Shown: positions 3,413 through 64,000 of the stretch, in pieces | Layout: every line of letters begins with the position of its first letter | How positions within the stretch are numbered: the first letter of the stretch is position 1 | Source: Basidiobolus meristosporus CBS 931.73 | Taxonomy: Eukaryota; Fungi; Basidiobolomycota | Reading direction: 5' to 3' | DNA length: 64,000 nucleotides | Assembly (NCBI GenBank): GCA_002104905.1 | Contig: MCFE01000265.1 | Location: 43,915-107,914 of the forward strand | Program-made: the position numbers and the translations under genes | The notes under the pieces: model-generated | Database searches by the model: none | Told to the model about the DNA's origin: nothing | What the model saw: the letters and a program-made list of their open reading frames with translations, nothing else

Positions 3413-3484
3413 CCTTTTGGAGGCAGTGAATTCAAATTACCTAGATGATGAACTTGATTACTGGTGCGTGTGGTAAGCGCAAGG

Positions 3485-3491
3485 TTTTATA
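3485..3491 (-). promoter_or_regulatory. Putative TATA box of PMA copy 1
   Basis: TATAAAA on the minus strand ~73 nt upstream of the ATG; similar spacing in copies 2 and 3. Confidence 0.45.
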
Positions 3492-4777
3492 ATTATTATA
3501 TCATGCATGGTAACTCTCATACCCGCCGTTGGTCGTTCCATGGAAATTCCAAATCCAATTATCCTTGTTCATTCAAGCACTGACACTTACAAATCCAGCC
3601 ATTGATTGGAATGATGATCTAGGAATGGATATCGTCTGGACAATTTCTCTGCGTTTGCTATGATGCAACCTCAGAGGATATACTCAACAGTAAACGTGAA
3701 TTGTTCTACTTCAGGGCACACGCCTTTATTTCAGATATTTCGAGGCATTTCAGGCATCAGGGGAAAATCCCCATTACTCTCCAACATACTATCATTTGGC
3801 AAGCATCTGCTTTCAGTATCGAGCGCTATGGGTGGATCATAATAAGCTAAACTTGTTTATGCATATCTATGCTGTCACAATCAACTAGAATCCCCCAATT
3901 TGTACATGGTTTACTATATAATCCCGATGGGAATAAAATAATAATGATCAAGCGATATTAGCACAAACCAAAGATTCATTCCATGTGCCTATATAGCTTC
4001 AAAATATCCAAGTGTTACTATGATATAATGTAGACTTTGAAAGTCAATGGAGCGTCTTAATGAACAGTAGTCATCATTAACAGATAGCGAGCATATCACC
4101 AGATAGGATAAGTATAATCCGTTGTTGTGGCTCAGTTGATTAAGTAAGCGGCTTTTACTAGTGATTAGTTATTGCTTGATAGCCAATGTGGGTTGCGCAC
4201 GGGAAATTCGAGATTCCATTCCGTTGCAAAAAAATCACCTACCTCATCGATAACATCTCCCTGAAATCAGCAATGAGAAGTCTTTATATGGTAGCTCAAC
4301 CTCCTCATCCATTGGTCTTGGTAAACTGTTCACCATATCGGATCATTATTTCACCAGCGATCCCATCGTGATGCCATAACCGTATAAGCAGTCCCATCAC
4401 CAAAACTTATTGGATCAGCGAGTACACACCATGTGTATTCACGACAGTTCCTGCTGCCTTTTTCAGTACTCTACCATGGGCATAAACGCTAAAAATGAAA
4501 CTTGAACACGTGGCTTGATGGAGCGGATACCAGGGGCCAACGTTAACATACAAACAATATTTCAGATATGGGTGAGGTTTTGTCCGAGGATATAATACGA
4601 TTGTTGATGATAGCGATATCTTTTATTAAAATGAATTAAGATGGGTTTGGCAATAGCCAACACCCACCATTTACACCGGACAACTTGGATGTCTATAATC
4701 TATTTGGGTATAATCTATGTAAGGTGTCCGGAATATTAGGACAAGTATGAATTTGAAATCTAAGGTGAACCAGTGAA

Positions 4778-7573
4778 TTAGTGGCTTTCTTCTGAGTCTT
4801 CTTCAGCCAACATAGGTTGCTGCTCATGCTTGACAGAAAGACGGGCCATCTCAACCATGAAGTCCTCCATGCTTCTGTTCTTCTTCTTCATCGACTTGCC
4901 GTGAGCAAGTCTATCGAAGGCCTCGGAGTTCGACAGGATCATGTACACCATGGCCATGACAACAAACACTCCGAACGAGAACAGCCAGATACGAAGAACC
5001 GCAACAATACTGGTATGCTCGCCAGTGAACCATCCCCAGAGTGCAAAGCACGAGGCAAGGACATCAACTGCAAACACAGCACCAGCCAATTGCCAGGATG
5101 GGAGACTCTCGAAGAAGGAAGTGTTCAGACGAGTGATGAAGATCAACCAATTCTCAGTCAACGCAACTTCAAGGAACATCACTTCTTGCGCTCCACCGAA
5201 GTTCTCAATGATACCGTGACCAGGGACAAAAGTGGTGGTGAAGGTGATCCAAGTACCAACGGTAAGGATAATGGCCATAACAAGTGAGAGTGCCCACAAC
5301 TTGGGAAGGTTCCACTTGACTGGGACAGCGGAGTAAGGAGCATTATCGTAAGCAACCATAAGAGTAGCAACATCAGCGAAAATGGCAATGAACACAACCA
5401 GTTCAATGTTCATTGACTCGTTCAGAATGACAGTACTGGTAGTCAAGAAGATTTCCATATGGAGAGAAAGAGCAATACGGTACACGATATAGGCGTACAT
5501 ACGGTGGAAAATCTGGCGAGAAGTCTTGATTGCATCGATGATCACTCCCAGTCCTGGGGCCAAGAACACAATATCAGCAGCACTACGAGCAGCATCACTA
5601 GCTCCTTCTACAGCAATACCGGTATCAGCCTTCTTGAGGGATGGTGCATCGTTCACACCATCACCGGTCATGGCAACAAGGTAGCCACGCTTCTGGAGAA
5701 TGTCGACAGCATGATACTTGTGTTCAGGGAACACCTCAGCAAATCCATCAGCTGCCTCAACGAAGTCGTAGAGTGCTGCTCCAGATAAACCACCTTTATG
5801 CGAACTACCGCCACCGCCCATACCAAGTTCATCAGCGTTGTAGATATTGGTGCCCATTCTGAGTTGTCGTGCGGTTTCCTTGGCAATACCAACAGCATCA
5901 CCGGTAAGCATCTTGACCTTGAGTCCGAGTTCCTGAGCAGTAGCAATAGTCTTTCCAGTATCAAACCGAGGAGGATCGAACAGCGACAAGACACCAAGAA
6001 TCTGCCATCCGTTAGCTGGGGTGTACCAAGCAATACCCAAACTTCTGAAACCACGATCGGCGAACTCAGAGACAACCTCGTTATACTTCTTAGCAAGTGC
6101 AGGGTCCAGATTACCTTCCCTTTGAACCATACGAAGCACAAATGGTGGGGCACCCTTGACTGCGACACACTTGTTGCCCTCAGGATCGACAACCTTGGCA
6201 ACCACCATCTTGGACACAGGATCGAATGGCTGGAACTCAGTCATGCGGTACTCTCTCATTCTTCTCTTAGCGTTGGGGTACTTTCCGAGTGCCTTCACAA
6301 CAGCCTTGTCAATGGCGTCCATGCCCTTCTTCTTACGCGAGGCAGCCAAAGCGGAGACAAACAGCAGCATCTCCTCATCCACTCCATCCACACAGTAAGG
6401 ATCGTGGAGGGTGAGCTTGTTCTGAGTCAGGGTGCCAGTCTTATCCGAGCACAGGATCTCCACACCAGCAAGTGATTCGATGGCAGTCAGCTTCTGAACA
6501 ATAGCCTTCTTCTTAGCCAAGAAGGCAGCTCCAACAGCCATAGTGGTTGTGACCACAGCGGGAAGACCGACTGGAACACCAACGACAGTGATGGCCAAGG
6601 CATACTCCAAAAGGGTGACAATGCTGAGAGAACGATAGAAACCAGCACTCCAGATAATCAATAACCACAGGATCACAAGCACTAGCAGAACAGTACCAAT
6701 GTTGTTGATGACCTCAGTGAAATGTCCCACTCCGTTAGATTTTCCAGCAAGGGTAGCGGCTCTTCCTACGAAGGTATGTTTACCGGTGGCAGTAACTACA
6801 GCGTAACAGCTACCACGCTTGATACCAGAACTACTGAACAACTCGTCACCAGGTCCCTTGGAGGCTGCCAATGACTCACCAGTAAGAGCGGATTGATCGA
6901 CCTGGAGGCGGGAGTCTTCACCAAGAACGCGACAATCAGCGGGGACAATTGCACCATCTTCAACGAGAATGATATCTCCGGGAACAAGCGAGGTAGCCTC
7001 AACTTGTCCCTCCTTTCCATCTCTCACTGCGATAGCCGATAGGGCCAATGTCTGCTTCAGTTGATCAATGATGTTACCAGCTTGGTATTCCTGAAGGAAA
7101 CCAACGAATGCGTTCAACGTAAGCAAACCAATAATGACACCAAGATCAACCCAATCTCTGAGACCTCCGGAAAGACCAACGGCGGCCCACATCACATACT
7201 GAATGGGGCCACAGAAGAACATGAAGAACTTGAGCAGTTTGCTCTCACTCTCGATATCGAGCTGGTTGAGGCCATACTTCTTACGACGATTTTCGACTTC
7301 AGCGGATGACAATCCAGTGCTAGGATCAGTTTGGAGTAACTCCTCTGGAGTAGCCGTCTCCACCACCTCACCATCCTCATCAACCTCTTCCGCCGCTTCA
7401 CCATCATCACTCCAACCGTAGTCACTAAGGATAGAAATGGCGGCTGCAGATTGTTGAGTATCTTTCTTCGATAGTGGGGAAGTTGCAGTCAAGTTCCTTC
7501 CACCCTCTGGGGCGGCCTGTTCAGAATCAAACTGAACTGTGGCGTTGTTCATGTTTGTGCCTTCGTCTGACAT
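4778..7573 (-). CDS. PMA1: Plasma-membrane P3A-type H+-ATPase, copy 2 (931 aa, intronless)
   Basis: Complete ORF, same catalytic and membrane motifs as copy 1. Confidence 0.97.
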
Positions 7574-7651
7574 ACTTGAAAGCTTCTTAGTACTTTGGAT
7601 ACTAAGAGGTGTGTAAGTAGAGAATTGATGTTATACTCCTATCTCTGCTCC

Positions 7652-7659
7652 TTTATATA
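7652..7659 (-). promoter_or_regulatory. Putative TATA box of PMA copy 2
   Basis: TATATAAA on the minus strand ~79 nt upstream of the ATG. Confidence 0.55.
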
Positions 7660-9128
7660 CTGTTTGGATGTACGTCTCTTTACCCGTATCTTGATAATTC
7701 GGAAATGACACGATATGTTCCTCGCGAGTCTGTCCCAAAATGGGAATCGATTGGAAGATTATGGACTAGAGTCTCCATGCGGCGAATGATATGGTGGTAC
7801 CAGATATATCGGTAATAGGTTTTTCAGTGGCATCGATCTTTTGGGAAGATATTTCTGTTGATACCTACAAATCAGCTGCTTGATAGTGGTCTACTTTCGA
7901 AATGCGCGATTTAGAGACATCTCGGTAACCAATATTGTCTCATCATCAGTTGGAATAAATTTTATTAAACTTTTTACTTATGTCACCAAAACTTTATAAT
8001 ATCAGATAATCGGTATGTTGGGTCTTCTTTTGGATGAGATTTGCTTATACTATGCAATAGGGTACTGGCCTATACAGGTCCCTAAAGCTAGGTGTTTACG
8101 GACTGATAGTGCTCATTAAGCGGGATTTACCTAAGATACAGCAAAACATGGCTGCGAAATGGGAATATTCAGTTTATGCTTTGTGTACGCTAATCAGTAA
8201 GATTTGTTTTCCGATGATCGTTAATGGATAATAGGGTAAATGGATTATCGCACGCATTGATTTAAATTGTATCCTATCTTATTTATCGGGATCATCTCGC
8301 AGTTGTTGAAATCTTGGTGGGAGTACACGCTCAAGAGCATGATATTGAGGCTTTGGGATTAGCGACATTGAAATACAGTACAGTGAATCCCACGGGTTAC
8401 CTACCGCTAGAATGTATTTTAAGTACCTATCTTGCCTCCTATAGGCGATACCCAATGCAACTGCCAAACACGATAGCGATGGAACCAATAGTGACAATGC
8501 TATGCACTTACTCACGCTGTCATCTTTATTCTAATATATCGTGTTATACATATTCATGTATTTCTTGTATCTGTTCAGGCTAAATAATCAGGAGTCCATA
8601 ATAGCCAATAGGTAGCCAGATCGCAAAAAACGTTGATCCACTTTTATATACCATATATAGTTAATCGCCTCTGCAAACACCTATTATACCAGCATGCCAT
8701 ATTTGTCGCACAAAAATGAGCAACTTGTGCTACATATTCCGTATCCAACGATTCCTATTATGAAACCTAAGATCTATCAATACGGCCGCTTACTCATTGA
8801 CAAATGGGATAATATTTACGCACCAAAAATCGTGATAAAGACTGCGTAATTTTGACGGGACATTAGATCGATGAATCACATACCCTAATAATTCCCCCAG
8901 TCCAAATATGGCAAATGGTCACCTGGATTTTTCACCAAATTTCTTCACCGTTGCTTCAAGCATAACTAACGTCAGATAGTAAGGGATTCATTCCAGAATG
9001 ATTGGAACATACAGTAAATTTTTATTAATGACTTGATTTATAATTCTATGGAGTAAAAATGCAGGTACGGCTGAAGTAAGGTAAAATACTACGGCAACAA
9101 TTCTAAATGTAAATTACAATGGTAAAGG

Positions 9129-11906
9129 TTAATGGCCCTCCTTGCCCTTCTTGCCCTCCTCTTCTTCGAGCATAGGTTGCTCTTCATGACGAAGGGAAAG
9201 ACGTGCCATCTCAACCATGAAGTCCTCCATGCTTCTGTTCTTCTTCTTCAACGACTTACCATGAGCAAGTCTATCGAAGGCCTCAGAGTTTGACAGAATC
9301 ATATAAACAAGTGCCAACACCACGAATACTCCGAACGAGAACAACCAGATACGAAGAACCGCAACAATACTGGTATGCTCGCCAGTGAACCATCCCCAGA
9401 GTGCAAAGCACGAGGCAAGGACATCAACTGCAAACACAGCACCAGCCAATTGCCAGGATGGGATACTTTCAAAGAAGGAAGTGTTCAGACGAGTGATGAA
9501 AATCAACCAATTCTCAGTCAAGGCAACTTCAAGGAACATCACTTCTTGTGGTCCACCAAAGTTCTCAATGATACCGTGACCAGGGACAAAAGTGGTGGTG
9601 TAGGTGACCCAAGTACCAACGGTAAGAATGATGGCCATAACAAGTGAGAGTGCCCACAACTTGGGAAGGTTCCACTTGACTGGTACGGCGGAGTAAGGGG
9701 CATTATCGTAGGCAACCATAAGAGTAGCAACATCAGCGAAAATGGCAATGAACACAACCAGTTCAATGTTCATTGACTCGTTCAGAATGACAGTACTGGT
9801 AGTCAAGAAGATTTCCATATGGAGAGAAAGAGCAATACGGTACACGATATAGGCGTACATACGGTGGAAAATCTGGCGAGAAGTCTTGATTGCATCGATG
9901 ATCACTCCCAGTCCTGGGGCCAAGAACACAATATCAGCAGCACTACGAGCAGCATCACTAGCTCCTTCTACAGCAATACCGGTATCGGCCTTCTTAAGGG
10001 ATGGTGCATCGTTCACACCATCACCGGTCATGGCAACAAGGTAGCCACGCTTCTGGAGGATGTCGACAGCATGATACTTGTGCTCAGGGAACACCTCAGC
10101 GAATCCATCAGCTGCCTCAACGAAGTCGTAGAGTGCTGCTCCGGATAAACCACCCTTACCAGATGCTCCACCACCGCCCATACCAAGTTCATCAGCGTTG
10201 TAGATATTGGTGCCCATTCTGAGTTGTCTTGCGGTTTCCTTGGCAATACCAACAGCATCACCGGTAAGCATCTTGACCTTGAGGCCGAGTTCCTGGGCGG
10301 TAGCGATAGTCTTTCCAGTATCAAACCGAGGAGGATCGAACAGTGACAGGACACCAAGAATCTGCCATCCGTTGGCTGGGGTGTACCAAGCAATACCCAA
10401 ACTTCTGAAACCACGGTCGGCGAACTCAGCAACAACCTCGTTGTACTTCTTAGCAAGTGCAGGGTCCAGATTGCCTTCCCTTTGAACCATGCGAAGCACA
10501 AACGGTGGAGCACCCTTGACTGCGACACACTTGTTGCCCTCAGGATCGACAACCTTGGCAACTACCATCTTGGACACAGGATCGAACGGCTGGAATTCCA
10601 ACATGCGATACTCTCTCATTCTTCTCTTAGCGTTAGGATACTTTCCGAGTGCCTTCACAACAGCCTTGTCAATGGCGTCCATACCCTTCTTCTTACGCGA
10701 GGCAGCCAAAGCGGAGACAAACAGCAGCATCTCCTCATCCACTCCATCCACACAGTAAGGATCGTGGAGGGTGAGCTTGTTCTGAGTCAGGGTACCAGTC
10801 TTATCCGAGCACAGGATCTCCACACCAGCAAGTGATTCGATAGCAGTCAGCTTCTGAACAATAGCCTTCTTCTTAGCCAAGAAGGCAGCTCCAACAGCCA
10901 TAGTGGTTGTGACCACAGCGGGAAGACCGACTGGAACACCAACGACAGTGATGGCCAAGGCATACTCCAAAAGGGTGACAATGCTGAGAGAGCGATAGAA
11001 ACCAGCACCCCAGATGATCAACAGCCAAAAGATAACAAGAACCAGCAGAACAGTACCAATGTTGTTGATGACCTCAGTGAAATGACCAACTCCGTTAGAT
11101 TTTCCAGCAAGGGTAGCGGCTCTTCCTACGAAGGTTTGTTTACCAGTGGCAGTAACAACAGCGTAACAGCTACCACGCTTGATACCAGAACTACTGAACA
11201 ACTCGTCACCAGGTCCCTTGGAGGCTGCCAATGACTCGCCAGTAAGAGCGGATTGATCGACCTGGAGGCGGGAGTCTTCACCAAGAACGCGACAATCAGC
11301 GGGGACAATTGCACCATCTTCAACGAGAATGATATCTCCGGGAACAAGCGAGGTAGCCTCAACTTGTCCCTCCTTTCCATCTCTCACTGCGATAGCCGAT
11401 AGGGCCAATGTCTGCTTCAGTTGATCAATGATGTTACCAGCTTGGTATTCCTGAAGGAAACCAACGAATGCGTTCAACGTAAGCAAACCAATAATGACAC
11501 CAAGATCAACCCAATCTCTGAGACCTCCGGAAAGACCAACGGCGGCCCACATCACATACTGAATGGGGCCACAGAAGAACATGAAGAACTTGAGCAGTTT
11601 GCTCTCACTCTCGATATCGAGCTGATTGAGGCCATACTTCTTGCGACGATTTTCGACCTCAGCGGATGACAATCCTACTCTCGGATCCGTCTGGAGAAGT
11701 TCTTCGGGAACCTGGGATTCCACAACTTGTCCATCCTCATCCACTTCTTCGGCCGCTTCACCTTCTTCACTCCATCCGTAGTCACTAAGGATAGAAATGG
11801 CAGCAGCGGATTGTTGTGTTTCCTTTTTGGTCAAACCAGAAGTAGGCGTCAGAAGAGTGGATTCATTATTTTCGCCCCCATTTCCAGCATTTGCATTTTC
11901 CGACAT
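9129..11906 (-). CDS. PMA1: Plasma-membrane P3A-type H+-ATPase, copy 3 (925 aa from the second in-frame ATG)
   Basis: All P3A motifs present. Start placed at 11906 (MSENANAG...) rather than 12047 because the 47-aa extension has no paralog counterpart and contains the TATA-like box at the conserved spacing. Confidence 0.95.
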
Positions 11907-11986
11907 CTCTATTAGTTTAGTTTCACTGCGACCTCCACTGTTCGGAATAAGCAATGATCTGAATTTCGAATGGAAGTGCCCCACGG

Positions 11987-11993
11987 TTATATA
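11987..11993 (-). promoter_or_regulatory. Putative TATA box of PMA copy 3
   Basis: TATATAA on the minus strand ~81 nt upstream of ATG 11906. Confidence 0.55.
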
Positions 11994-12949
11994 CCCCCTT
12001 GAGACTGGAATTTTTGGCGCTAGTCTTCTCCCTTGACGCGACGCCATTGGTCCATGATCGGCTAAGTATTTTTACGTGATTGGTGAATTCATATTGATGG
12101 TTATATCTTATGCCATCGCTATTCAATTCTTCCGCCTGGTGTGAGGTTAATGTTGGCATAAGCACCTTATTCTACACACTAGTCCAAGTTAGTATAGTGT
12201 ACTACACGGGATGATGTAATCTTCGGCCATGCTCGATTCTTATTTGCGGCCCAGTCTAAGTGGTAGCAGTTACGCATTCGGTTAGAGCATCTCAATCCGG
12301 CATCTCCAGAATGATTTTCATCGGGATTGATACAGCAGAAGCAATCTTATCACTCGATAATGAATCAGCACTGTTAATACTTTAACCATCACATTGTTGG
12401 ACTACTCCCTTGGTTGACCTCAAACAATGATTGTTTATGAGTGACCCTTACACGAAAAATATCACCAAGGCTCATATGGACTGTTTACCACGGACGCGAG
12501 ATATGATCTATTCTCTCACGGTGCAAAATTCCTCGGTGGATGCTGAGGACCTCGCTATTACGTAGTCGGTAGAAATATTTTGCTTAGACATGGACCAAAT
12601 CGTTTAGACGCCAATTTAAGCAGATGGTTAATATTGGTACCTTCGATGCTATCTTTAACTGCGAAATAATCCATTGTTGGCGGGATGCCGTCATGAGCCT
12701 CAACTTATTTCCGCTAAACTATGTTTATGCAACAATCGGCGTTATCAGTTTAATCAACATGTGTAGGTAGCGAAGTTTACGAATCAGTATGGTGATGAGG
12801 ATGCGGATTCGATGGGTGATTCAGTGCTCAATACTCACAAGTCCTTTCCAAAAGGAGAATAAAACATACAGATCTGCCCAATGAACCTCGAGGGATGGGA
12901 ATGATTACATTCCTTCTGGACGTCAAATAATTTTGGCGGTTGCTTGGTG

Positions 12950-29280: not shown

Positions 29281-29380
29281 CACTCCCTATAAAAAATCTC
29301 AGACTTGAAATTCATCTAATTTTTAGCTGGTATTTTGCTGGTATTCTGATGGTGTTTTGCTGGTATTCAGCTGGTGTTTT
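29281..29380 (+). repeat. Putative CACTA/CMC left terminus with 5 x 11-bp subterminal repeats
   Basis: CACTCCCTATAAAAAATC at 29281, then GCTGGTATTTT-type units at 29326-29380; inverted counterpart at ~51335-51428. Confidence 0.55.
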
Positions 29381-29619
29381 AGGTTCATAATCTCAAATGC
29401 AATTTCTGATTGAAGTAGTGGGCAACTAATTACCAAATATGGCAAGGATGCTGGTTTGTCTAGTCTCCTCCTGGAGAACTTGTTTGCTTGCCTGCCCATC
29501 AGCTCAAAACAGAGATATTGAGAGTTGTCAATTTTGAGAAACTTAGAATTCAGCTGATACTATGATGGTGTTTTGCTTGCCTTCTCTCAATTTTTTTTCT
29601 TAGAGGCTGATGTAAGTCT

Positions 29620-43781: not shown

Positions 43782-44666
43782 TTACTCTTCATAATGCTCC
43801 AGACACATTTCTCTCAGTGGATGTCTTCTTGTATGAACATACTGTGCATTAATAAGTATCTTAACTATTTTACCTATTCTGCTGTTTTCTCCTATATATG
43901 ACTTTCCTCTGTATTTACCAGCCAATATGCTGAATCTCTTCAGATATCCAAATGTGTGCTCTACCCTCACTCTGAAATGATTAAATATCTCATTGTAGAG
44001 CTTCTGCTTCCTGCTAAGCACACCATTTCTTGGCTTCCTATCAGCTGTAATACATCCTAATCTCTAACAATCCTCTCCTATATAGGCTAAGTCTGCCATA
44101 CATTTCTCCCCTCTACTGAATTCAGGATGATTCTCTACCCAGAGTGCTTTGTCATGCCTACTTCCAGCAAATGGCCCACTAAACCAGATGATGTTACCCT
44201 CAATGTCAGATAGTGCTTGAAACTTCACACAGTGTGCCTTGTACTTGCCAGAATAAAAGTGCCTCTGCCCTCTAGATGGTCTGTTAATCCTCACTGGGAA
44301 GGTATCCAAGATACTCCTGATATGGAACCTGTTGCTGAACACTCTGGGATATGGAAGTCTATTGGAGCTTCTGAACCTAGTATTCCAAGCTTGCTCTAAG
44401 TCATTCATACCCTCTGCAAGGTGGTTCTCCATTGCTGTCAGCTGGGAATGAAAGCTTCTAGGACTTTTGTTGCCATGGATGGTGGGATGAAACCTTGTAG
44501 GGCAATAGTTCTTGTAATAGCAGAGAAGATTAACAAGGGATCTCCTTGAGTAGATTGGGGTTGATGGTCCACAGTACTTGGAGTATATCTCCTCTAGTGT
44601 GTCAAAAGGAAATCCAGTGGTAGTGATGGGATTGATGAGAAAAGACCATTCAGATGAATAAGTCAT
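43782..44666 (-). pseudogene. DDE_Tnp_4-type (IS5/PHIS) transposase, 294 codons with one internal TAG
   Basis: ILDTFPVRINRP..QRHFYSGKYKAHCVKFQ...GSRHD...ADLAYIG...RKP...LYN...RVRVEHTFGYLKRFSIL; one frame across the stop at 44064-44066. Confidence 0.9.
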
Positions 44667-44985
44667 ATTAAAATTGATGGATGATTGTATAAAGGCGGTT
44701 TGAATTGATTTGGCGCAATCTACGTTATTTATCTGATTTTTAATACATTATGGTTAAATCTCCATCAATTGCCATGTATCCCATCATTATGTTGCAAAAA
44801 TCATCCGCAAACAATGCCTTGGTACTTTTATTGATGCTTTACTCATAGGTCTATAATCAAATAGGAAATCTGCAATTGATGTGATCTGATCCGTGTCAAC
44901 GCAATCCAAGATGCATCATGCATAATATAAGGAAAATTCAACAATCACATTAGTTTTCATATATATTTCATATAAGACCAGGTAG

Positions 44986-46257
44986 ATGCCAATATACTGC
45001 TGTATAAGTATCCAAATCCGTTGCTATGGTCCCCGTACCAAGCCTCAACTCATCTTTAGTACAACCCAGACAAAACCCATCCCCAGCTCACAGGCGCAGT
45101 CTGGACCGGAGAAGTTGATGTTGGATCCGTTTGAGTTCTTGCCAAATGATTTTAGTATGGCCCAAGTGTCTATGATGAGCCTTCATACAGATATTTGGGC
45201 ACTACTGATTAATCTAGCAGAGCTAGATACCTCAGAGAGTCAACAAAGACGGAAGAATTTGAGTAGAAAGCTGTGGCATGAGTTCTACATCAAGATACCA
45301 GCCAATGTATGTAAAAAAATATAAAACAAGACAAGTATTGAAATCAAGAATGAGCTGAGAGTGAGGGGATTTGACAAAGAAGCTGCGCGGGAATGATTTT
45401 GCTCGCAATTTGCACAGTACGGGCCGGATGCGTCCGTTTGTGCCTCAACTTTGGGAACCAAATAGATTTTGAATGAGTTTTTGCCTCAAATGACAAATGT
45501 ACTACGTGATATATTAGTAGAGCTAAGTGGCTTCTGAGAGCAATATACACAGGACTCATCCAGGCAACAGCTCCAAAGTATCAGACAGAGGGTAAGTGAA
45601 TACCTTGAGGAATCAGATGGTGAGCTTCAGGAGGAAGAATACAGACCGCAAGCAACATTGTCCAGATTGCGCCAGCACGCCTTGCTGGATTCCCTACCAT
45701 CTCTTGCAACCACAGCGTGCTGGCGCACGTCAGTCCAGACCATGCCAACACCCTTTACCAGAACGCCCTGCGTCGAGTCAACGCGCGCGCTTCAGAGCAA
45801 AACTACAAGAACTCGCCAAACTGCTCATTTAGGCACAAGTCCATTGGAGCGGACCAAGTTGCGTCAACATGCGGCATCACATTGAACTCAGCCAAGGGCC
45901 ATCTCAATGCGTCAAGGCACGCCTGCACATGCTGTTTTGCCTGACCATCAGCAAGTTACCTCTGGTGAACTGACTGATGATGACCAACATGAAGTGCCTC
46001 AACCACCGGAGCCCTTGGCAAGTAAAAGAATGGGTCAGCGCGTGGCACTACAGGCCAGTTCAGTTAGTTCAGTTGGAGCAATTCAGCACGGCCAAGCTGC
46101 AGCATTGCACTCATCAACTAGGAGGCAAAATACTGCCTACAAATACACAAGTAGCCACGATGATAGTCAGCCAGGAAGTAGTATAGGTGTGCAAAGTGAG
46201 TCACTACCAAATGCTTCAGTAGTAATCCCTGTGAGAAAAAAACCCAGGAGAAGATGA
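44986..46257 (+). pseudogene. Second ORF of the Pangu-like element (~424 codons, five in-frame stops)
   Basis: ORF-track pieces 44986, 45658 and 45907 share one frame; stops at 45322, 45394, 45463, 45535, 45883; ends RKKPRRR. Start codon uncertain. Confidence 0.7.
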
Positions 46258-48680
46258 TGCAATCACTTTGAATTGCTTACATTTGTAATGATCCCGACAA
46301 CCCTTTTTTTTTGCGATCCAAATTGAGCCATTGCAAATCAGTGATCATCAAATTTTTGATATAAGTAATATCAAGGTCATCTCACATATGAGACAGAACC
46401 CCTATAAATAAACACCCTGCATATATATACGTCATCTGCAATACCAGTGCAGCTATTGGATCTGTTTTGCACCTACACAATTGCTTGTGTGCTAGCTATG
46501 ACACCTTGTCCAGTCACTTGGATCAGGGATTTACTTGCTCAATGGGCAAAATGGGATATTTGATGGCAAATCAGGTAGCTTTTTCAGTAGTCAATGAGCC
46601 AATTGGGGGCTGCCAGCTTCAGGATACTTTTGGACCAATTAACTACTGAGATACTGTCCAATTGGAGTGAGGGTAACCAAAATGGTAAGTATCAGTGTAG
46701 TTTATAGTGTGATACACATTTATTTCCATTTACATTAAAGAAACATATCCAAATACCGGATTTTACCTGCCTTTATAGTGGTATCCAATCACGCACGTGA
46801 TGCAAACATTACAAGTTGGCGCAATCATCCATGCCAACCTCATTGTGTCAGATTGTGCCATAGTGTGCAAGATTGTCCCGCATAGTGCGAAATTGTCCAA
46901 GAACAATCTTGCCTTCTGGTAGCTATGATATTGCGCCCAATTGTTCTTTACAACCGCGGATCGCGCCGCGCGCCCTGGCACGTTACAATGGAACAAGTCT
47001 AATAAGCAGGCAGAAAGGGATGCATAAGTGTGGCACTTGTCAAGGCAAAATGTAGTACAATACAAGAGGTACTTAGACAAGTTAGCAGTGATAAATCAAG
47101 CAGTAATGAAGAAAAGTTAAACAGAACAATTTCTACCCAAGCCAGATACATGGAAGCATGAATAAAAAGCTGGAGTTCTCTCCAATCTACCCAATAAGCC
47201 TGGAATAAGCTGAATCTCATGATAGCCAAGAGGAATAAATAACAAGAAAACAGCTGTTTTCTCAATAGTCGGAAGTGTAGCCCATTGAGCTATTCCACAG
47301 TGAGGTAGTTGAGCTGGCAGAGAAAGGCAATTTGTCTACCACAGCCCCTGTGTCCTTCATTGAAGAAAGAGTGGAGACCCCATTTACAGACAAAGCAGCA
47401 ATGTTGAGAGCTTACATGACTACTGCAAAGCCTACAGTGGAATTTAAGGGCAATAATAGCTACTGCAAAAGGTTGCAGTACTTCTTTGAGAGCATTGCTC
47501 AAGAGAACTTGCCTGACTATTGGAAGGATTCCGGTAAAGACTGGCAGATGAAGTGCTTGACCTTGCAGATGAAGTGCTTGACCTTGCAGTGCCAGTCAAA
47601 GACCAGGATGTATGGACCCAGTGTGTAAACAATGATATAAAGCCATGGGGCACTTGCCAAAGTCATGTAAAAAGGGTGCTTCTTCAGAAATACTTATTAA
47701 ATGGTAGATCTTAATGGAGGTACTTGTTGAGCTTGAGGTTGGGCTTAATGTTACTGTGGGGTATAAGGGCCTGCATGGGTCAGTAAAATTGGTAATTATA
47801 AGAAAAGGAAATAAATCAGTTTGTATGCATGAAAAGTAAGAGCTTCATTTGCATCAGGAAGTCAGGAGTGTACAAAAGAAGCAATAGACAAACAATGAAA
47901 GCAAATATAGGAGGTGATTGAGTGTCTGGGATCAGAAAGTGAGAGAATTGGCAGACAAAAAATCAAAAGCCATATTACTTTGCTTAGGGGTATGTGGTGT
48001 GGTGGTGTATAAGTCCAAAGGGCAAAATATAGCCAACACTTCTCTAGTGTGAATGTGTGTGGGGTGTTCACTGGGTGCAATAACCTCTGGCAAAAGCTTG
48101 CTAGGAATACTGGGTCTTTTGTCTAATCTAATGTGAAGGGGGATAAAGCCTCAAGCTTGTCAAGGGAAAACTATTGAGCTACAATCCCCAACTTAGTTGG
48201 CATCTTAACAAAAGTTTATAATGGCTTCAACATCCTTTGAGATGACTGTGTACTAAAGCTTCCAAAGTCAAAACAACTTTAAGCTCCACCAGCAGGGACT
48301 TGATAAGAATGCAGCTGTTGCCAATAGTTACAAAGACTGAAAAGTATCTTTGCCTGTATAAGAACAAATTTGGGAAAACAATCAAATATAATAAAGTATA
48401 CCTACTCTGAGTATTCCTCATAAGTAGTGCCACCAAGGTCAGTTGGCTGTCAGCGTAGTTCCCTGGGAGTATTGTCAGGTCTGAGTCAGAAAGTAGTGGT
48501 AAATAGGTAGTGGTGATCTCACTAATCTATAAGCCAGAATATTGGAAGAGGGATGATTTATTTCAAGGGATAGCCTCCCTTATATACTTTTTTGCTGCTC
48601 AAATTCTTGCTAAAAAATACTTTCTGGAAGTTTCCAGAAGGTAGTAGACAGTCAATCATGTCATTGTGTGCTAAAAATAG

Positions 48681-49670
48681 CGCAAAATCTTGGCTGATTA
48701 TGTATCCATCCAAGCTCCTACCATCATGATCAATCCCATTCCTCACCATAAATTATCTGATCTTATGAACGTTTTAGAAAAAATCTTTCCAGAACCCAAA
48801 CTTTTAGATTTTTTTCTCATGATGTGTGCTTCTTTCTTAGAGGGCTACAATACACACAAAATCTTTTACATTTGGTGGGGCAAAGGTAATAATGCCAAAA
48901 CTGCTATTCAAACCTTATTAGCAAAAACTTTTGGTGAATACTGTGCCACTCTACCTACAACTTTAATTACTTGAAGCAGAGGCTCCTCTTCTAACGCCAC
49001 TCCTGATATGTGCCACTTAAAAGGCAAGCTTATTATGTTTTTATAAGAGCCCAACCCCAAAGAAAAAATCAAGGGTGGTATTGTTAAGGAATTAACTGGT
49101 AACAATAGTATTTATATAAGAGAACTTTACAAACAGCCTTGCTCCATTAAGATTAAAGGTAAGCTCATACTTGTTTGTAACAACTTATTAGATATTCCTG
49201 ATATAGATGCAGCACATAAACATCGTACTATTGTTCTTCCTTTCTTAAGTACTTTCTTACCCCAACGCAAGTTTGATTCTCCAGAGAACAAAAATAAAAA
49301 ATATACTTATTTGGTTGAACCAAATGCAGAAAAAATATTAGAAAACTCCTGTGATGTTTTTATGTCGTTATTGTTACGGGGGTATCCTAGATATCTCAAA
49401 AATGGCCTCCAAGTACCCCAAATTATTTCTGATACTATAGATGATTATTTGGTTGCTCACAACTTTCCAGTTGTATTTAAACGTAAATATTTCAAGAATC
49501 AACCTGGTACTAATATGGAAGTTTGTGAAATTTATAACCATTTCAAGTCTTGGTTTAAAGATGTGCATCCAAGCCACAAAATTCCAACATTGGAAAAGTT
49601 TGCAAATGCTCTTAACTTAAACTGGGATGGTATATTAGAGGACATATTTGTTTCTTATAAAGAGATGTAA
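48681..49670 (+). pseudogene. Virus-type D5-like SF3 helicase domain, two in-frame stops
   Basis: Single frame: DYVS, KIFYIWWGKGNNAKT (Walker A variant), MFL*EP (Walker B), KELTGNNSIYIRELY, LILVCN (motif C), R-x-IVLPF-x-S-x-F; TGA at 48972, TAA at 49044; AT-rich. Confidence 0.88.
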
Positions 49671-50030
49671 TTGTGTTTAATTTTTTTATAGATATGTAGT
49701 TTATCTTAACTTTACTTTTGTAAACTATATTTTTTTTAAAAAGCTTTTAATCATACTTGTTAATTACTTTTGTAAACAATATTTTTAACTCTGAGTAAAC
49801 TTTTTTTAAAAAGGTTTTTTCTCAGATACTAATATGGTTTAAATTTTTTATAAACCATACTTTAAGTTTTAAATTAAACGTTCATGATTTAAAAAGTTTT
49901 TTACAAATTTGATATTTGATGTTTGAAATTTGATATTTAAATTTAAACTTGGTTTCGAAAAGTTTTTACAAAATTATTTAAATCAACTCAAACCATTTGG
50001 TTTAAACTTTTGAAACGACTTTTGTATAAT
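49670..50030. other. Very AT-rich spacer with T/A tracts and short repeats
   Basis: Runs such as ttttttttaaaaagctttt, aaaagtttttacaaa twice, tttgatattt units at 49907-49940. Confidence 0.7.
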
Positions 50031-50890
50031 ATCAGCGTTTGTTTCTTAAGAAATTCCCTAATGCGGTAACTATGAATAATATTTGCATTTTTAAAATACA
50101 ATTATTTGCTTCTTGTTAGCAAATTTGTATAGTGTCGCCGCATTTGTATCTTAATAAATTCCCTAATCTGGTAACTATGATCCAACTTTGTAAATATTAA
50201 AGATGCAAAAATTTACACTTTGTTACTTATTTTGTATAGTGTCAGCGTATTTGTATCTTAATAAATTTCCTAATCCAGTAACTACGAGTTGAATTTGTAA
50301 ATTTATAAAGATACAAAAATTTGCTTCTTGTTACTGATTTTGTATAGTGCTAGAGCATTTGTATCTATATAAATTCCCTAATTTGGTATTTACGACCCAA
50401 CTTTGTAAATTGTTAAAGATACAATAATTTACACCCTGTTACCAAATTTGTATAGTGCCACTGCATTTGTATCTTTAAAAAATACCTAATCCGGTATTTA
50501 CGACTTAACTTTGTAAATATTAAAGATGCAAAAAATTGTTCCCTGTTACCGAATTTGTATAGTGTCACTGCATTTGTATCTTTATAAATTCCTTAATCCG
50601 GTATTTACAATTCAACTTTGTAAAATATTAAAGAAGCAAATTTTTTTTCCTTGTCACCAAATTTGTATAGTGTCACCGCATTTGTATCTCAAGAAATTCC
50701 CTAATACAGTAACTACAAGTCGGATTTGTAAATTGTTAAAGATACAATTATTTACACCTTGTTGCTGAATTTGTATAGTGTCAGCGTATTTGTATCTTAA
50801 GAAATTTCCCAATCCAGTAACTACGACCCAACTTTGTAAAATATTAAAGATGCAATAATTTACTCCTTGTTGCTTATTTTGTATAATGCC
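50030..50890. repeat. Tandem array of ~8 x 107-108-bp units
   Basis: TTTGTATA(G/A)TG recurs at 50124, 50231, 50339, 50447, 50554, 50662, 50770, 50878; each unit has inverted arms TTTGTATCTT...AAGAT(A/G)CAA. Confidence 0.95.
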
Positions 50891-51334
50891 ATAGCACTTT
50901 CATTCAGGTGTTTAAAGGTCAGCGTAACTTGGAACTATAAGGAACTGCTGTCCTGGCAGAGTATGCATGACATTTTCATCAACAACTTCTTGAACTTAAG
51001 TAAGCCAATGGAGTTTGACCCATCATTGATATGCCATGACATCTAACATGTAGCAGAAGCTGCCAAAGGCAAACAAGGAAGGGTCACACAGTAAAAGACC
51101 AATAGCTTCCTCCAGATCCCAAAGTAAAAAATTAGCAGAAGGCCAGTAGAGTACATTCATAAAATCAGCTGAATTCCAGCTTTTCCAAAAGTGGCAACTC
51201 TCACTGTCTAATGTACTAGCATAACAGCAGTCAAGTAGACATCCTTTGTGCAGGAATACAAGGTCAACTAGCATTCATACCAGATTTGGTAATTGGTTGC
51301 TCATTACTTCCATCAAATTACAACTGAAAATTTG

Positions 51335-51428
51335 CAGCAGAAACACCAACTGAATACCAGCAAAATGCCAGCAGAATACCAGCCAAAAGTCCAATGAATT
51401 CCAAATCTGGGATTTTTCATAAGGAATT
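51335..51428 (-). repeat. Inverted copy of the putative CACTA terminus and 11-bp subterminal repeats
   Basis: Reverse complement aligns with 29285-29380; GATTTTTCATAAGGAATT vs expected GATTTTTTATAGGGAGTG. Confidence 0.55.
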
Positions 51429-52009
51429 ATATTTTATGCAAGGCTGAGAGCTCTAAAGATTTGGTAAAGGAAAGTCAGGTAGTTGGAAGAGTTCAAGAAT
51501 AAAGCCCACTCAAGCCAGAGAGAGGAGCATGAGATTTTCATGGTTGGCAGTAATTCATGTGCAATCACTTAGCTTAGGCTTTACTAGCATATTCCATAGA
51601 TTGATTTACATAGTAGACTATACAGGAGTGTCCAGGAGAAGCAACAGCATCCAGAATCCACCAATCATCTTGCTGGTAAAGCAGTAAGTATGAATATATT
51701 AGCAGTTTGAGTATTTTAATATCTTACTAAAGGAGCACCATTGAGTAAGAAAGTACAGTGGTGAAAATACCTAGATATAACTGTTAACTTGAGCAAAATG
51801 ACCAGTATATGTCAATCAATACCAACATGAAATATTGTATTAGTTCTGTTGGAGGACATGGACTTGGAATTGTGAAAAGGAGATTCTCTATGGATGTAGG
51901 GAGCACACAGGAATTGAGGTAATTTTCGCGATATTAAATGTTCCTATTGGTTGCTTAACAATTAGCCAAAATGATGAAATGCTATGGAAAGTACATCGAG
52001 TGTGATGTG

Positions 52010-54015: not shown

Positions 54016-54146
54016 GCGAAATCCCTGGCCGTTCAAATGTCATCTGCAATTGTTATCTCATATCCATAGAGTTGCCATCCCTTTCCACCCCCAACTCATC
54101 CCCCTGCTATTACTCATAGAAATCTCTCTTGTCGAAGAGCAAGAAA

Positions 54147-57014
54147 ATGTCTGAGAAACAAGACACTGCTGCCCCAGCAAACCAAGGGTCCGTTCAGTTT
54201 CAGGCTGATCAGCCAGTTCCCGATCGCCAGGTCAACCGTGAAAGCTTGGCGGGAACCGATTCCACATTCGCTGACAACGAAAATGGCAACAGACACCTTA
54301 ACGCCGCCACTCCCCTAAGCAAGAAAGACACCCAGCAATCCGCCGCTGCCATCTCGATCATGAGCGACTACGACTGGAGTGACGAAGAAGAGATCCCTGA
54401 AGAGGACGAAGACAGCGACGAGCCCAGAGAATATGTGATTCCCGAGGAGCTGTTGCAAACCGATCCCACCAAGGGACTGACTTCCGCTGAAGTTGAGACC
54501 CGTAGAAAGAAGTACGGCCTTAACCAGCTCTCCATTGAGAGCGAGAACAAAATCGTCAAGTTTTTCATGTTCTTCTGCGGCCCCATTCAGTATGTGATGT
54601 GGGTTGCCGCCTGTCTTGCCGGTGGTCTCCAAGACTGGGTTGATCTTGGTGTGATCATCGGTCTGCTTTTGCTTAACGCCTTCGTCGGATTCATCCAAGA
54701 ATACCAAGCCGGAAATATCATCGATCAATTGAAGCAAACCTTGGCTCTCACCGCTGTTGCTGTAAGAGACGGTCAAGAGAAAGACGTTGAGGCCAACACC
54801 CTAGTTCCTGGAGATATCATTCTTGTCGAAGATGGTACCATTGTTCCCGCTGATGCTCGTGTGCTCGGGGAGGATTCCCGGTTGCAAGTAGACCAATCTG
54901 CTCTTACTGGTGAATCATTGGCCGCTTCCAAGGGACCCGGAGATGAGCTTTTCAGTAGTTCTGCCATCAAACGTGGTAGAGCCTACGCTGTTGTCACTGC
55001 TATTGGTGAGAAGACTTTCGTTGGCCGTGCTGCTACTCTGGCTGGTAAAGCTAGCGGAGGTGGTCACTTCACTGAAGTCATCAACGGCATCGGAACTGTT
55101 CTTCTTGTCTTGGTCGTCATCTGGTTGTTGATTATCTGGATCTCCGGCTTCTACCGTTCCACCGGCATCGTTAAACTTCTTGAGTATACTCTTGTCATCA
55201 CCGTTGTCGGTGTGCCTGTAGGTCTTCCCGCTGTGGTCACCACCACCATGGCTGTAGGTGCCGCTTTCCTAGCCAAGAAAAAGGCCATTGTTCAAAAGTT
55301 GACCGCCATTGAATCCCTTGCCGGTGTTGAAATCCTGTGCTCCGACAAGACCGGTACCCTTACCCAAAACAAGCTTACCCTTCACGACCCTTACTGTGTC
55401 GAAGGTGTTGACGACGAGATGCTGATCTTCGTGTCTGCCTTGGCCGCTTCCCGTAAGAAGAAGGGTATGGATGCCATCGATAAAGCCGTTATCAAGGCCC
55501 TAGGCAAATACCCACAGGCCCGCATGAAGATGAGAGAATACCGTATCCAAGAGTTCCAACCCTTCGATCCCGTTTCCAAGAAGGTTGTCGCCAAGGTTAT
55601 CGATCCCGAGGGCAACAAGTGCATTGCTGTCAAGGGTGCCCCACCATTCGTTCTTCGCATGGTCCAAGAGGAGAGCAACCTTGATCCTGCCATTGCCCAG
55701 AAGTACGAAGAGGTGGTTGCTGAATTCGCTGACCGTGGCTTCAGAGGCTTGGGTATTGCCTGGTATACACCCGCTAACGGTTGGCAGATTCTTGGCATCT
55801 TGCCCCTCTTCGATCCCCCTCGTTATGATACTGGTAAAACCATTGCTGAGGCTCAAGAACTTGGTCTTAAGGTGAAGATGCTTACTGGTGATGCCGTTGG
55901 CATTGCCAAGGAAACTGCTCGCCAGCTGAGAATGGGCACCAACATCTACAATGCGGACAAACTCGGTATGACCCAAGGTGGTGCCTCCGGCTCTGGTGAA
56001 ATGACTGGCTCTGAGCTATACGATTTCGTCGAGGCCGCTGATGGATTTGCCGAGGTGTTCCCCGAACACAAGTATCATGCAGTCGACATCCTCCAAAAGC
56101 GTGGCTACCTTGTTGCTATGACTGGTGATGGTGTCAACGACGCCCCATCATTGAAGAAGGCTGATACCGGTATTGCTGTGGAAGGCTCTAGCGATGCTGC
56201 TCGCAGTGCCGCCGATATCGTGTTCTTGGCCCCTGGTTTGGGAGTGATCATCGATGCTATCAAGACTTCTCGCCAGATTTTCCACCGTATGTACGCCTAC
56301 ATCATCTACCGTATCGCCTTATCCCTACATCTTGAGATCTTTTTGACCACCGCCATGGTCATCCTTGATGAAACCATCAACGTCGAGCTTGTTGTATTCA
56401 TTGCCATTTTCGCCGATATTGCCACCCTGATGGTTGCTTACGATAACGCTCCCTTCTCCGCAACCCCCGTCAAATGGAATCTTCCCAAACTCTGGGGTCT
56501 TTCGGTCATCATGGCCATTATCCTGGCCGCCGGTACCTGGATCATCTACACCACCACCATGGTCCCCGGACAAGGTGTCATCCAGAACTGGGGTGGTGCA
56601 CAGCAGGTCATGTTCCTTGAAGTCGTTCTCACTGAGAATTGGTTGATTTTCATCACTCGATTGAATACCTCTTTCTTCGACAGCTTGCCTTCCTGGCAGT
56701 TGGCCGGTGCGGTATTCGTGGTCGACATCCTCGCCTCCATCTTCGCCATCTTCGGTTGGTTCACTGGCGTTGACACCGACATCGTTACCGTCGTCCGTAT
56801 CTGGCTCTTCTCGTTCGGAGTGTTCTGCGTGATGGCATTGGTCTACATGATCCTCTCCAACTCGGTTCCCTTCGACCGTATTGTGCACGGCAAGTCCCCC
56901 AAGGCAAAGAAGAATAGAAGCCTCGAGGACTTCATGCTGGAGATGGCTCGAGTTTCCAATAGACATGAATACCAACGAGTGCCCAAGCACGAGTCTCTCA
57001 CCCCAAGCGACTAA
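54147..57014 (+). CDS. PMA1: Plasma-membrane P3A-type H+-ATPase, copy 4 (955 aa, intronless)
   Basis: All P3A motifs; first ATG is 54147 (the track start 54129 is TTG); longer N-terminus; many C-ending codons. Confidence 0.97.
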
Positions 57015-62684: not shown

Positions 62685-63854
62685 CTAACTTGCTTCTCCA
62701 GGATCAATTTTGTTTACGGAGCATGGGGAGTCACCGTAGTACCATTGCTGGTTGTCACTCGCAAGGGGATCGCAGGCAAGTACCTGATACCATTTGGCGG
62801 CAGAGTGGGGTGCGGCCTGTGTTGCTTGAGGGATGTTTTCCACAGAGCCAAATAGCTGGCAAACCATAGGGTTCTGGGTAAGTTCCTTGGGAGGGTCGGA
62901 GAACGAGAAAAGGTGCAATAGCGCGATAAAGTCTTGCTTCTTTATCTTGCAAACGTAATCGGGGCTTGTCCTTTTTGTGTTCAATATGACGGTGGGGGAC
63001 CTTTTGAAGAGGGCGTACACTTGGTCGGCAGTCACCCGTTGTTGATAACAAGTTTTTGCTTCTTCCGAGACGTATTGTAGTTCTTCCGTAGAAACTGTGG
63101 CGCAATCGAGGCGCTTTTGTACTCGCCTCATGGTTTCTACAGAATCCGCGGCGGTTTCTTCGGCTTCTTGGAGTTGGACTTTGTACTGATTCCTGAGTTG
63201 TCCTATGGTAAACCACTGTAATAGTTGTAACACAGCAACTTGGTGGATCGCATGGGTTAACTGGCTGGTGTATTTAATCCGTTCACGAATCTTCTCTAAG
63301 ATGGTTCCTTCTTGGAAATGTGGTTTGAGATGTTCGCAAATTTCTTGGAGGAGTCCTTCGATCGGGAGTTCTACTTCTGGTGCTCTTGCAGCTTGTACCA
63401 GGTCTGCGTATACCTCAACAACTGTGGTACCTATTAATGGCAAGTATGCAACAAAACAAGGGGGCTCTCGAGGTCTCATGAGGGCGCAACAGTTGATTCC
63501 TTGTGTCTTCTGTCTGACTGTGTCCAGTATGGATACGGGAATCAGCGCGGCGTCCTTCTCCTTAATGATCAAGGAACCTCCTCTTAGGTGGTACACGGTC
63601 TTCTTGGGTAGTATCTCCATGCTTCGTATCAGCGTGGGTAACTTGTCTCGTCCCTCTCTGATTGTGTCTTGTATTAGCGTGACTGCTCCGGCAAACAACT
63701 CTTCATAGGTGGCTCTCGTCGTACGTAACGCTCGTACCATATCTCTTAGCACTTGCAGGTTGGTTTCGTTTTTGATATCATCTTGGTTCTTGCTAGTGGG
63801 AGGGGTATCGCCAGTTTTGGGTGAACTGTTTCCTTTGGCGCTTTCCATATGCAT
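62685..63854 (-). CDS. Hypothetical 389-aa protein, no recognised domain
   Basis: Uninterrupted 1170-nt ORF with CpG retained; predicted coiled-coil stretch LRNQYKVQLQEAEETAADSVETMRRVQKRLD. Confidence 0.6.
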   Translation of the reverse strand: MHMESAKGNSSPKTGDTPPTSKNQDDIKNETNLQVLRDMVRALRTTRATYEELFAGAVTLIQDTIREGRDKLPTLIRSMEILPKKTVYHLRGGSLIIKEKDAALIPVSILDTVRQKTQGINCCALMRPREPPCFVAYLPLIGTTVVEVYADLVQAARAPEVELPIEGLLQEICEHLKPHFQEGTILEKIRERIKYTSQLTHAIHQVAVLQLLQWFTIGQLRNQYKVQLQEAEETAADSVETMRRVQKRLDCATVSTEELQYVSEEAKTCYQQRVTADQVYALFKRSPTVILNTKRTSPDYVCKIKKQDFIALLHLFSFSDPPKELTQNPMVCQLFGSVENIPQATQAAPHSAAKWYQVLACDPLASDNQQWYYGDSPCSVNKIDPGEAS

Positions 63855-64000
63855 TCTTTTGTTCTCCCCTTTGGGCGAACTCCCTCGCGCATATTATTTG
63901 TACCTATATTGACTAAAATCTCCTCTAATAAACTTTGTATGTATCCTGTGTCTTCCTCTATCCCTGTCCTGATAATTGTTTAATCACACTTTGGTTTCAG

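Follow-up and report, generated by a model that had tools for sequence, protein, structure and literature searches.

How did the broken end of a giant-virus-type helicase gene come to lie among transposons on a fungal chromosome, and what sort of element did it come from? The locus that raises this question occupies 48696-50891 of a 64,000-nt stretch of Basidiobolus meristosporus CBS 931.73 (contig MCFE01000265.1, positions 43,915 to 107,914), called the window below, and consists of the 3′ part of a D5-like superfamily 3 (SF3) helicase gene followed by an AT-rich spacer and a tandem array. The fragment is a viral-type D5 within a fungal genome, and the locus itself is a further broken copy of a virus group already known from Basidiobolus, the fundsalphaviruses. 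We consider it probable that the D5 piece, the spacer and the array were captured from a fundsalphavirus, a small giant-virus relative that likely persisted without a capsid as a multi-copy replicon. The gene fragment and its landmarks are as follows.

48696..49670, plus strand: 3′ part of a D5-like SF3 helicase gene, encoding the helicase domain and the C-terminal domain, about 45% of a protein of 620-720 aa, and holding two in-frame stops; from profile, fold and homologue alignment
48879..48902, plus strand: Walker A motif, in a variant common to 35 of 51 aligned clade members; from alignment
48972..48974, plus strand: first of the two in-frame stops, at codon 98; from open reading frame (ORF) reading
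49029..49049, plus strand: Walker B motif, broken by the second stop at 49044-49046; from ORF reading and alignment
49164..49184, plus strand: SF3 motif C; from a structure-database match and alignment

The frame running from 48681 to 49667 holds 329 codons and is interrupted only by the stops at 48972-48974 and 49044-49046. The first five of these codons are part of the upstream repeat and not of D5, and the stretch with D5 homology, 48696-49667, comprises 324 codons with the same two stops. When this stretch was base-shuffled 2000 times, the shuffles contained 22.8 stops on average and never fewer than 11, and none of the 2000 had two or fewer. For the profile searches the frame was read with X at the stop positions; it matched TIGR01613 (E 1e-25, 90 bits, short of the curated cut-off of 108.7), phage DNA primase PHROGs of the D5/P4 type (E 4e-30) and, in the PDB, C962R of African swine fever virus (ASFV; E 1e-10). 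Walker A, Walker B and motif C stand in SF3 spacing together with a P4/D5 C-terminal profile, and the second stop falls within Walker B. As its sequence stands, no functional helicase can come from the window copy. The gene's 5′ half, including any archaeo-eukaryotic primase (AEP) domain, was sought across the window and not found; moreover, when the window was searched with 424 ORFs from related contigs, D5 was the sole match, and no other viral gene was detected. An earlier note on this DNA, made from the sequence alone, had described about 330 codons in one frame with two stops and SF3 motifs of the D5 type, and both observations were borne out here. Its endogenous virus-like module in a transposon island stands as regards the D5 helicase and the island, but it is reduced to a single gene fragment, the 424 ORFs having matched D5 alone. 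The span that it gave, 48681..50890, does contain D5, with homology starting at 48696, and also encloses the array, which it had not described.

The closest homologue is an uninterrupted NCBI protein from Basidiobolus ranarum (P0041; 385 aa, on a 1514-bp contig), identical at 274 of 325 positions (84%). P0002 and P0003 follow with 55% and 49% identity, and the nearest proteins together span 42-84%. The D5 tree, midpoint-rooted, had 105 rows, obtained from 229 hits (of which 219 spanned 200 residues or more) after dereplication at 70%; its outgroup was 25 sampled long D5s, and named reference viruses were not among the rows. The query and the B. ranarum protein grouped with a support of 0.994, were joined by P0002 and P0003 at 0.999, and this group was nested, with supports of 0.83-0.97, in a clade of mostly 600-720 aa D5s that contains proteins from Linnemannia, Podila, Ramaria and Spirogloea. 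In full-length relatives of the clade the N-terminal region is shorter, and no conserved acidic motif was found in the first 240 residues. A structure model of P0003 (pLDDT 89.6) had as its top named fold matches the D5s of giant viruses, including Pithovirus, Solumvirus and Solivirus; P0002 used as a single-sequence query in the locus scan retrieved nothing. Best matches to cellular or transposon helicases, which the earlier note had named as an outcome that would refute it, were not what the homology search gave.

Fundsalphaviruses were described by Gong, Zhang and Han 2020 (PMC7017919) as endogenous Pithovirus-related sequences from nucleocytoplasmic large DNA viruses (NCLDVs) within 14 fungi of six phyla. 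The hosts include Basidiobolus meristosporus and B. heterosporus, and the Basidiobolus copies sit among Ty1/Ty3 elements (PMC7017919). The window locus, likely from the same host genus as judged by one homologue, resembles them in being endogenous in an early-diverging fungus, with stops and retrotransposon neighbours; in both, broken genes lie amid retrotransposons. The gene set shared by fundsalphaviruses (D5, SNF2 helicase, S-adenosylmethionine methyltransferase, RPB2, RPB5 and a split RPB1) was found on relatives of the same clade and not in the window. The loci of Gong 2020 were found through their DNA polymerase, whereas the window locus offers D5 and a 108-bp array only, and the sole Basidiobolus row in the available D5 tree of that paper is B. 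heterosporus. On these comparisons the source was likely the Pimascovirales-related fundsalphavirus clade, a kind known from Basidiobolus since 2020. The DNA virus or virus-like replicon that the earlier note had proposed as source accordingly takes the form of this clade, and not of a Polinton-like virus or phage. Clade D5s were also seen annotated in Ramaria rubella (P0051, 71-kb contig) and in the alga Spirogloea muscicola (P0038), two species that extend the hosts tabulated in the available text of Gong 2020 (PMC7017919), as well as in Umbelopsis (P0225, 1-Mb contig) and in a Phenylobacterium metagenome-assembled genome (MAG; P0178).

The nature of the source element was approached through 33 related loci from IMG/VR and metagenomes. 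Contigs with clade D5s encode PolB, RPB2, RPB5, a split RPB1, a capping methyltransferase, an SNF2 helicase, TFIIS, UDG and FEN1, and on them the AEP primase is a separate, stand-alone gene. Their PolBs form one clade (support 1.0) apart from other NCLDV contigs. HET-domain genes lie among the core genes of L021, L024, L025 and L029, one to three per locus, and one contig of the clade has a second, unrelated gene that combines Prim-Pol with an SF3 helicase (L008:17696-19948). Two relatives were read whole. The first is a closed IMG/VR contig of 51,666 nt (L035, L001, L034, L036 and L037) with a 151-nt direct terminal repeat that is crossed by an ORF; it carries the NCLDV replication and transcription core together with a ligase, MutS-HNH, a phage-type lysozyme, a B-lectin and Evf/Cyt-like cargo. 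At E<=0.05 in Pfam, none of its 41 ORFs matched a capsid protein, A32 or VLTF3. In the other in-clade loci, 165 of 238 ORFs were homologous to ORFs of this 51.7-kb contig, and for the 73 left over no match to capsid, A32 or VLTF3 was obtained. The second relative, G001:C3 (L038, L043 and L044; 37,136 nt), has 31 ORFs, 13 of which match the 51.7-kb contig; it has the core set and a PolB without stops, and its ends, when compared, showed no similarity or overlap. Once again, no major capsid protein (MCP), A32 or VLTF3 was detected, while the control genome G003 gave MCP and VLTF3 above the cut-off. G001:C3 was binned in a MAG titled Mycoavidus cysteinexigens, an endofungal bacterium, and a second such MAG carries an interrupted D5 (L041); both bins point to fungal cultures as the source. 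At the level of profiles, the virion gene set (MCP, A32 and VLTF3) is undetected in the window and in the two relatives read whole.

A clade without recognised virion genes might still be an ordinary particle-forming virus, with structural genes that are too divergent or that reside on another segment or in a helper, and the window would then be a relic of past infection. We regard this as unlikely, although it deserves more weight than any other alternative. No Pfam match was obtained for several ORF families conserved among the relatives, and the longest contigs measure 93 kb. Some fungal MCP and A32 matches group with NCLDVs, untied to this clade in the available text of Gong 2020 (PMC7017919), and a helper virus or a larger genome were among the options offered for similar sequences in a moss by Maumus 2014 (PMC4083422). 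Against it stand the results just given for the 51.7-kb contig, the 37-kb contig and the 73 further ORFs. In addition, the unassigned ORFs of the 51.7-kb contig that were found in at least four other loci measure only 143-226 aa, which is short for a double jelly-roll capsid, and one capsid-sized orphan (493 aa) resembles Evf/Cyt-like proteins instead.

The remaining parts of the locus and its flanks, none of which has an assigned strand, are listed here.

49671..50020: AT-rich spacer of 350 nt, 19% GC; from composition, its first 64 nt matching another sample
50021..50891: non-coding tandem array of a 108-bp unit present 8.1 times, units 70-85% alike, with a higher period of about 323 bp; from repeat detection
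47004..48699: left flank, CpG-depleted repeat DNA, of which the part near the junction is highly repeated in the genome; from composition and read contigs
50892..51425: right flank, CpG-depleted, with 51126-51425 a repeat that has a second copy at 29284-29596; from composition and repeat comparison

The integrity of the locus and the abundance of its relatives were examined with short-read contigs of runs X1-X5, which were compared with the window; X4/X5 are another study's sample, and X1/X2 are possibly the window's own sample. A 797-nt contig spans the left junction between repeat and D5 with 0 differences in both X1 and X2. The right junction, from the array to the right flank, was bridged by none among the contigs listed. 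Other copies of the left repeat reach 48699 and then diverge, and the homologous D5 contigs of X4/X5 extend 5′ past 48696, indicating that the gene and the left repeat were both cut at the joint at 48696-48699. In X1, the depth of D5 was close to single copy, and further diverged D5 and array pieces were present; the exact contig over D5 had a depth of 60-66, about half that of unique host contigs (100-127). In X4/X5, D5 contigs covering window positions 48770-49576 and about 82-85% identical to the D5 piece had depths of 5358-7275, about 170-230 times that of a host contig (32), whereas the other D5 copies stood at 10-27. This deep variant has a sense codon at the position of the window's second stop and a net in-frame gap relative to the window copy. 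The failure to detect virion genes on the 51.7-kb and 37-kb contigs and the deep D5 of X4/X5 jointly suggest a capsid-less, multi-copy replicon that would be alive in fungal cultures. Run X3 gave short matches at 49291-49343 and 48831-48913, on contigs of 30,149 nt and 678 nt with a depth of about 99, which suggests that X3 carries another D5 homologue, though none of the window's exact words.

It is improbable that the D5 piece is instead the passenger of a host transposon that spread it and thereby also produced the deep X4/X5 contigs. The locus does lie inside a transposon island, and X1 does contain other diverged D5 and array pieces; nevertheless, the X4/X5 homologue continues 5′ of 48696 and is not joined to the left repeat, the deep variant differs by its net in-frame gap and its sense codon at the second stop, and the X1 depth of D5 is near single copy. 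The earlier note had named contamination or chimeric joins as what would undo its reading. The unmatched depth of the D5 contig (60-66 vs. 100-127), the array-right flank joint unbridged among the contigs listed, and the circumstance that X1/X2, which bridge the left junction, may be the source sample of the window all leave some room for an assembly artefact or a contaminant joined to a fungal contig. We consider such an artefact very improbable, in view of the 797-nt contig that crosses the repeat/D5 junction without a difference in two runs, the stops and CpG decay, which are not expected of a free element, and the homologous low-depth copies in a second study. A chimeric join of the kind that the earlier note had named was thus not seen at the left junction. 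Least probable of all is a D5 from a Polinton-like virus, virophage, phage or plasmid, for which profile matches to phage and plasmid P4 primases and the JGI label 'P4 family' could be cited, but the nearest proteins (42-84% identical) are encoded next to a PolB of the NCLDV type and a multi-subunit RNA polymerase, and a full-length homologue has its top named fold matches in the D5s of giant viruses.

The composition of the locus bears on its age. The gene has a GC content of 33%, the spacer one of 19% and the array one of 28%, all below the 39-40% of the transposon DNA and the 52% of the host ATPase gene. The CpG observed/expected ratio is 0.26, 0.99 and 0.87 in gene, spacer and array, respectively, against 0.04-0.06 in the flanking repeats; it is 0.45-1.34 across 15 related loci and 0.06 in the transposon island. 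Compared with the closest homologue, five arginine codons have been lost, and all five now start with a deamination-type dinucleotide, whereas in the background 29 of 324 codons do. From these CpG ratios and arginine-codon changes, the D5 piece appears to be younger than the neighbouring transposons and to be decaying under CpG methylation. AT-richness with some CpG retained, decay of the C>T type and a relatively recent insertion had all been put forward in the earlier note, and the gene's composition, its lost arginine codons and its lesser CpG depletion than that of the surrounding transposons agree with each of them.

The first 64 nt of the spacer are conserved 3′ of the D5 stop in another sample, and the spacer therefore belongs to the element. 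The array unit contains an imperfect inverted repeat. A 36-residue protein repeat was considered for the array and rejected: all six frames are interrupted, the variation of alignment columns differs little between the codon positions (0.135, 0.171 and 0.125), and two units have a one-base deletion in common; Pfam returned one sub-threshold match only for the two longest array ORFs. The array motif had 0 matches in IMG/VR and in the 33 related loci, a blastn comparison of the array with those loci was negative, and Rfam found nothing in 48000-52000. In the relative L002 (11926-13276), a tandem array of a 126-bp unit, which has a higher period of three units and includes an inverted block, lies directly 3′ of the D5 stop; its layout is that of the window array and its sequence is unrelated. 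On architecture alone, the palindromic array is tentatively a candidate for an origin-like region. As a separate observation, the array retains CpG at 15 sites, next to a gene that is depleted.

These data can be assembled into a proposed origin, the parts of which carry different weights. A fundsalphavirus piece made up of the D5 3′ part, the spacer and the array would have been captured into a Basidiobolus-like chromosome and integrated among retrotransposons; the 5′ half of the helicase would have been lost by deletion or recombination, in which the left repeat was also cut; and the insert would have been silenced by CpG methylation and then have decayed by deamination. We deem the integration, the loss of the 5′ half, the silencing and the decay, taken jointly, very likely. 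The source element may have been a circle of about 50 kb, replicated and transcribed in the cytoplasm by enzymes of its own (PolB, D5 helicase, a separate AEP primase, FEN1, UDG, RNA polymerase, a capping enzyme and an early transcription factor) and passed on via hyphae and spores instead of virions. To a multi-copy cytoplasmic circle of this size, with split primase and helicase, no virion and hyphal or spore transmission, we give an even chance. Further still, fundsalphaviruses could be living, virion-less Nucleocytoviricota that exist as circles of about 50 kb at hundreds of copies in Basidiobolus and Mortierellaceae-type fungi, with HET, lectin and toxin-like cargo, so that the window would be a fossil that includes the origin region, with a live relative in the X4/X5 culture; this wider proposal is possible, with the odds somewhat against it.

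Several observations weigh against the capsid-less, multi-copy reading of the source or against parts of it. The window is without PolB, the gene whose tree defines fundsalphaviruses. Folding was better than 97% of own shuffles in only 2 of 8 array units, and a long array right behind D5 occurred in 1 of the 23 in-clade loci with at least 700 nt of downstream sequence. Only two relatives were read whole, one of them closed, and gene duplication is another way in which its 151-nt terminal repeat could have arisen. Further contigs that carry D5 are as long as 69-93 kb, of which at most 10 kb on either side of D5 was viewed. Very divergent capsids escape Pfam, and there are giant viruses whose particles lack a classical capsid. 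Finally, the deep X4/X5 D5 contigs are only 199-353 nt long and are possibly an amplified chromosomal repeat, and their depth, which does not equal copy number, is a hint only.

As for the surroundings, the CpG-depleted transposon island measures about 36 kb and contains Ty1/copia-type and other repeats. It is bordered by four intronless fungal Pma1-type H+-ATPase genes (635-12071, minus strand; 54120-57014, plus strand), three in tandem and one facing away. A DDE_Tnp_4 (PIF/Harbinger-type) element at 43782-47000 consists of two ORF pieces and is very highly repeated in X1/X2; the family is probably young, given the CpG partly retained at 45000-47000. A 402-codon open frame in CpG-rich DNA at 62685-63893 (minus strand) had no Pfam match.

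How does the proposed element compare with known systems? Polinton-like viruses, virophages and Polintons have a capsid and packaging ATPase, together with either an integrase or a protein-primed PolB, and they lack a multi-subunit RNA polymerase; the relatives described here carry RPB1, RPB2, RPB5 and an exonuclease-domain PolB, and no capsid was found in them. With ASFV C962R and other D5 primase-helicases the clade shares the helicase fold and domain order, but its D5s are 250-350 residues shorter than those of the C962R type and the AEP is encoded separately. Mycodnaviridae (PMC13533422) are likewise Nucleocytoviricota that persist in fungi with D5 and PolB. They were found by their MCP, have contigs of up to about 350 kb and lie near Algavirales/Imitervirales; in the main text of that paper, MCP is absent from non-zoosporic fungi except Dimargaris, and Basidiobolus is unmentioned. 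Neither an NCLDV MCP nor a genome of several hundred kb was found for the present clade. The Mortierella verticillata locus of Gong 2020 (PMC7017919) has core genes and HET cargo in common with the relatives, and the text of that paper available to us contains no closed genome, repeat array or multi-copy form. A 2026 paper, in the part available, treats the fungal sequences only as pseudogenes of past infections. In the open-licence PMC and bioRxiv literature searched, no title or opening of an abstract among the matches listed presented a genome of this clade as closed or as lacking a capsid; the name fundsalphavirus turned up in a single paper, and a search for Basidiobolus or Entomophthora with Nucleocytoviricota retrieved nothing.

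The nearest parallel outside fungi is in the moss Physcomitrella patens, in which Maumus 2014 (PMC4083422) reported methylated and silent NCLDV-like regions, in pieces of up to 13 kb, without capsid or packaging ATPase in the text available. These regions have the same twelve named gene families as the clade relatives, and the moss genes were placed with Pithoviridae/Pimascovirales (PMC5294986, PMC12142844); they differ in their plant host and in being integrated pieces only, and the moss D5, similar by eye, is more distant and outside the rows of our D5 tree. Maumus 2014 (PMC4083422) did not decide between a very small virus, a helper-dependent one and a piece of a larger genome as the source. 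New here are the closed 51.7-kb relative without recognisable virion genes and the very deep D5 variant in public runs from a related culture, which make that question testable with existing reads and a culturable fungus.

In its way of life, the proposed source element would work like the virus-like elements, or killer plasmids, of fungi. Those of the killer-plasmid type use protein-primed polymerases. They are double-stranded DNAs without a capsid that reside in the cytosol of Zoopagomycota and Mucoromycota and encode DNA and RNA polymerases of their own; they were found through high read coverage, carry toxin cargo in some cases, and are linear with terminal inverted repeats (PMC13348850). 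What sets the clade described here apart from killer plasmids is its D5 helicase, its AEP primase and a PolB of the NCLDV type, to which one case adds a direct terminal repeat; a linear genome with terminal inverted repeats was not seen, the repeat on the 51.7-kb contig being direct and the ends of G001:C3 dissimilar. If the proposal is true, a giant-virus lineage would have turned into a plasmid-like resident of terrestrial fungi, in parallel to killer plasmids and by separate descent.
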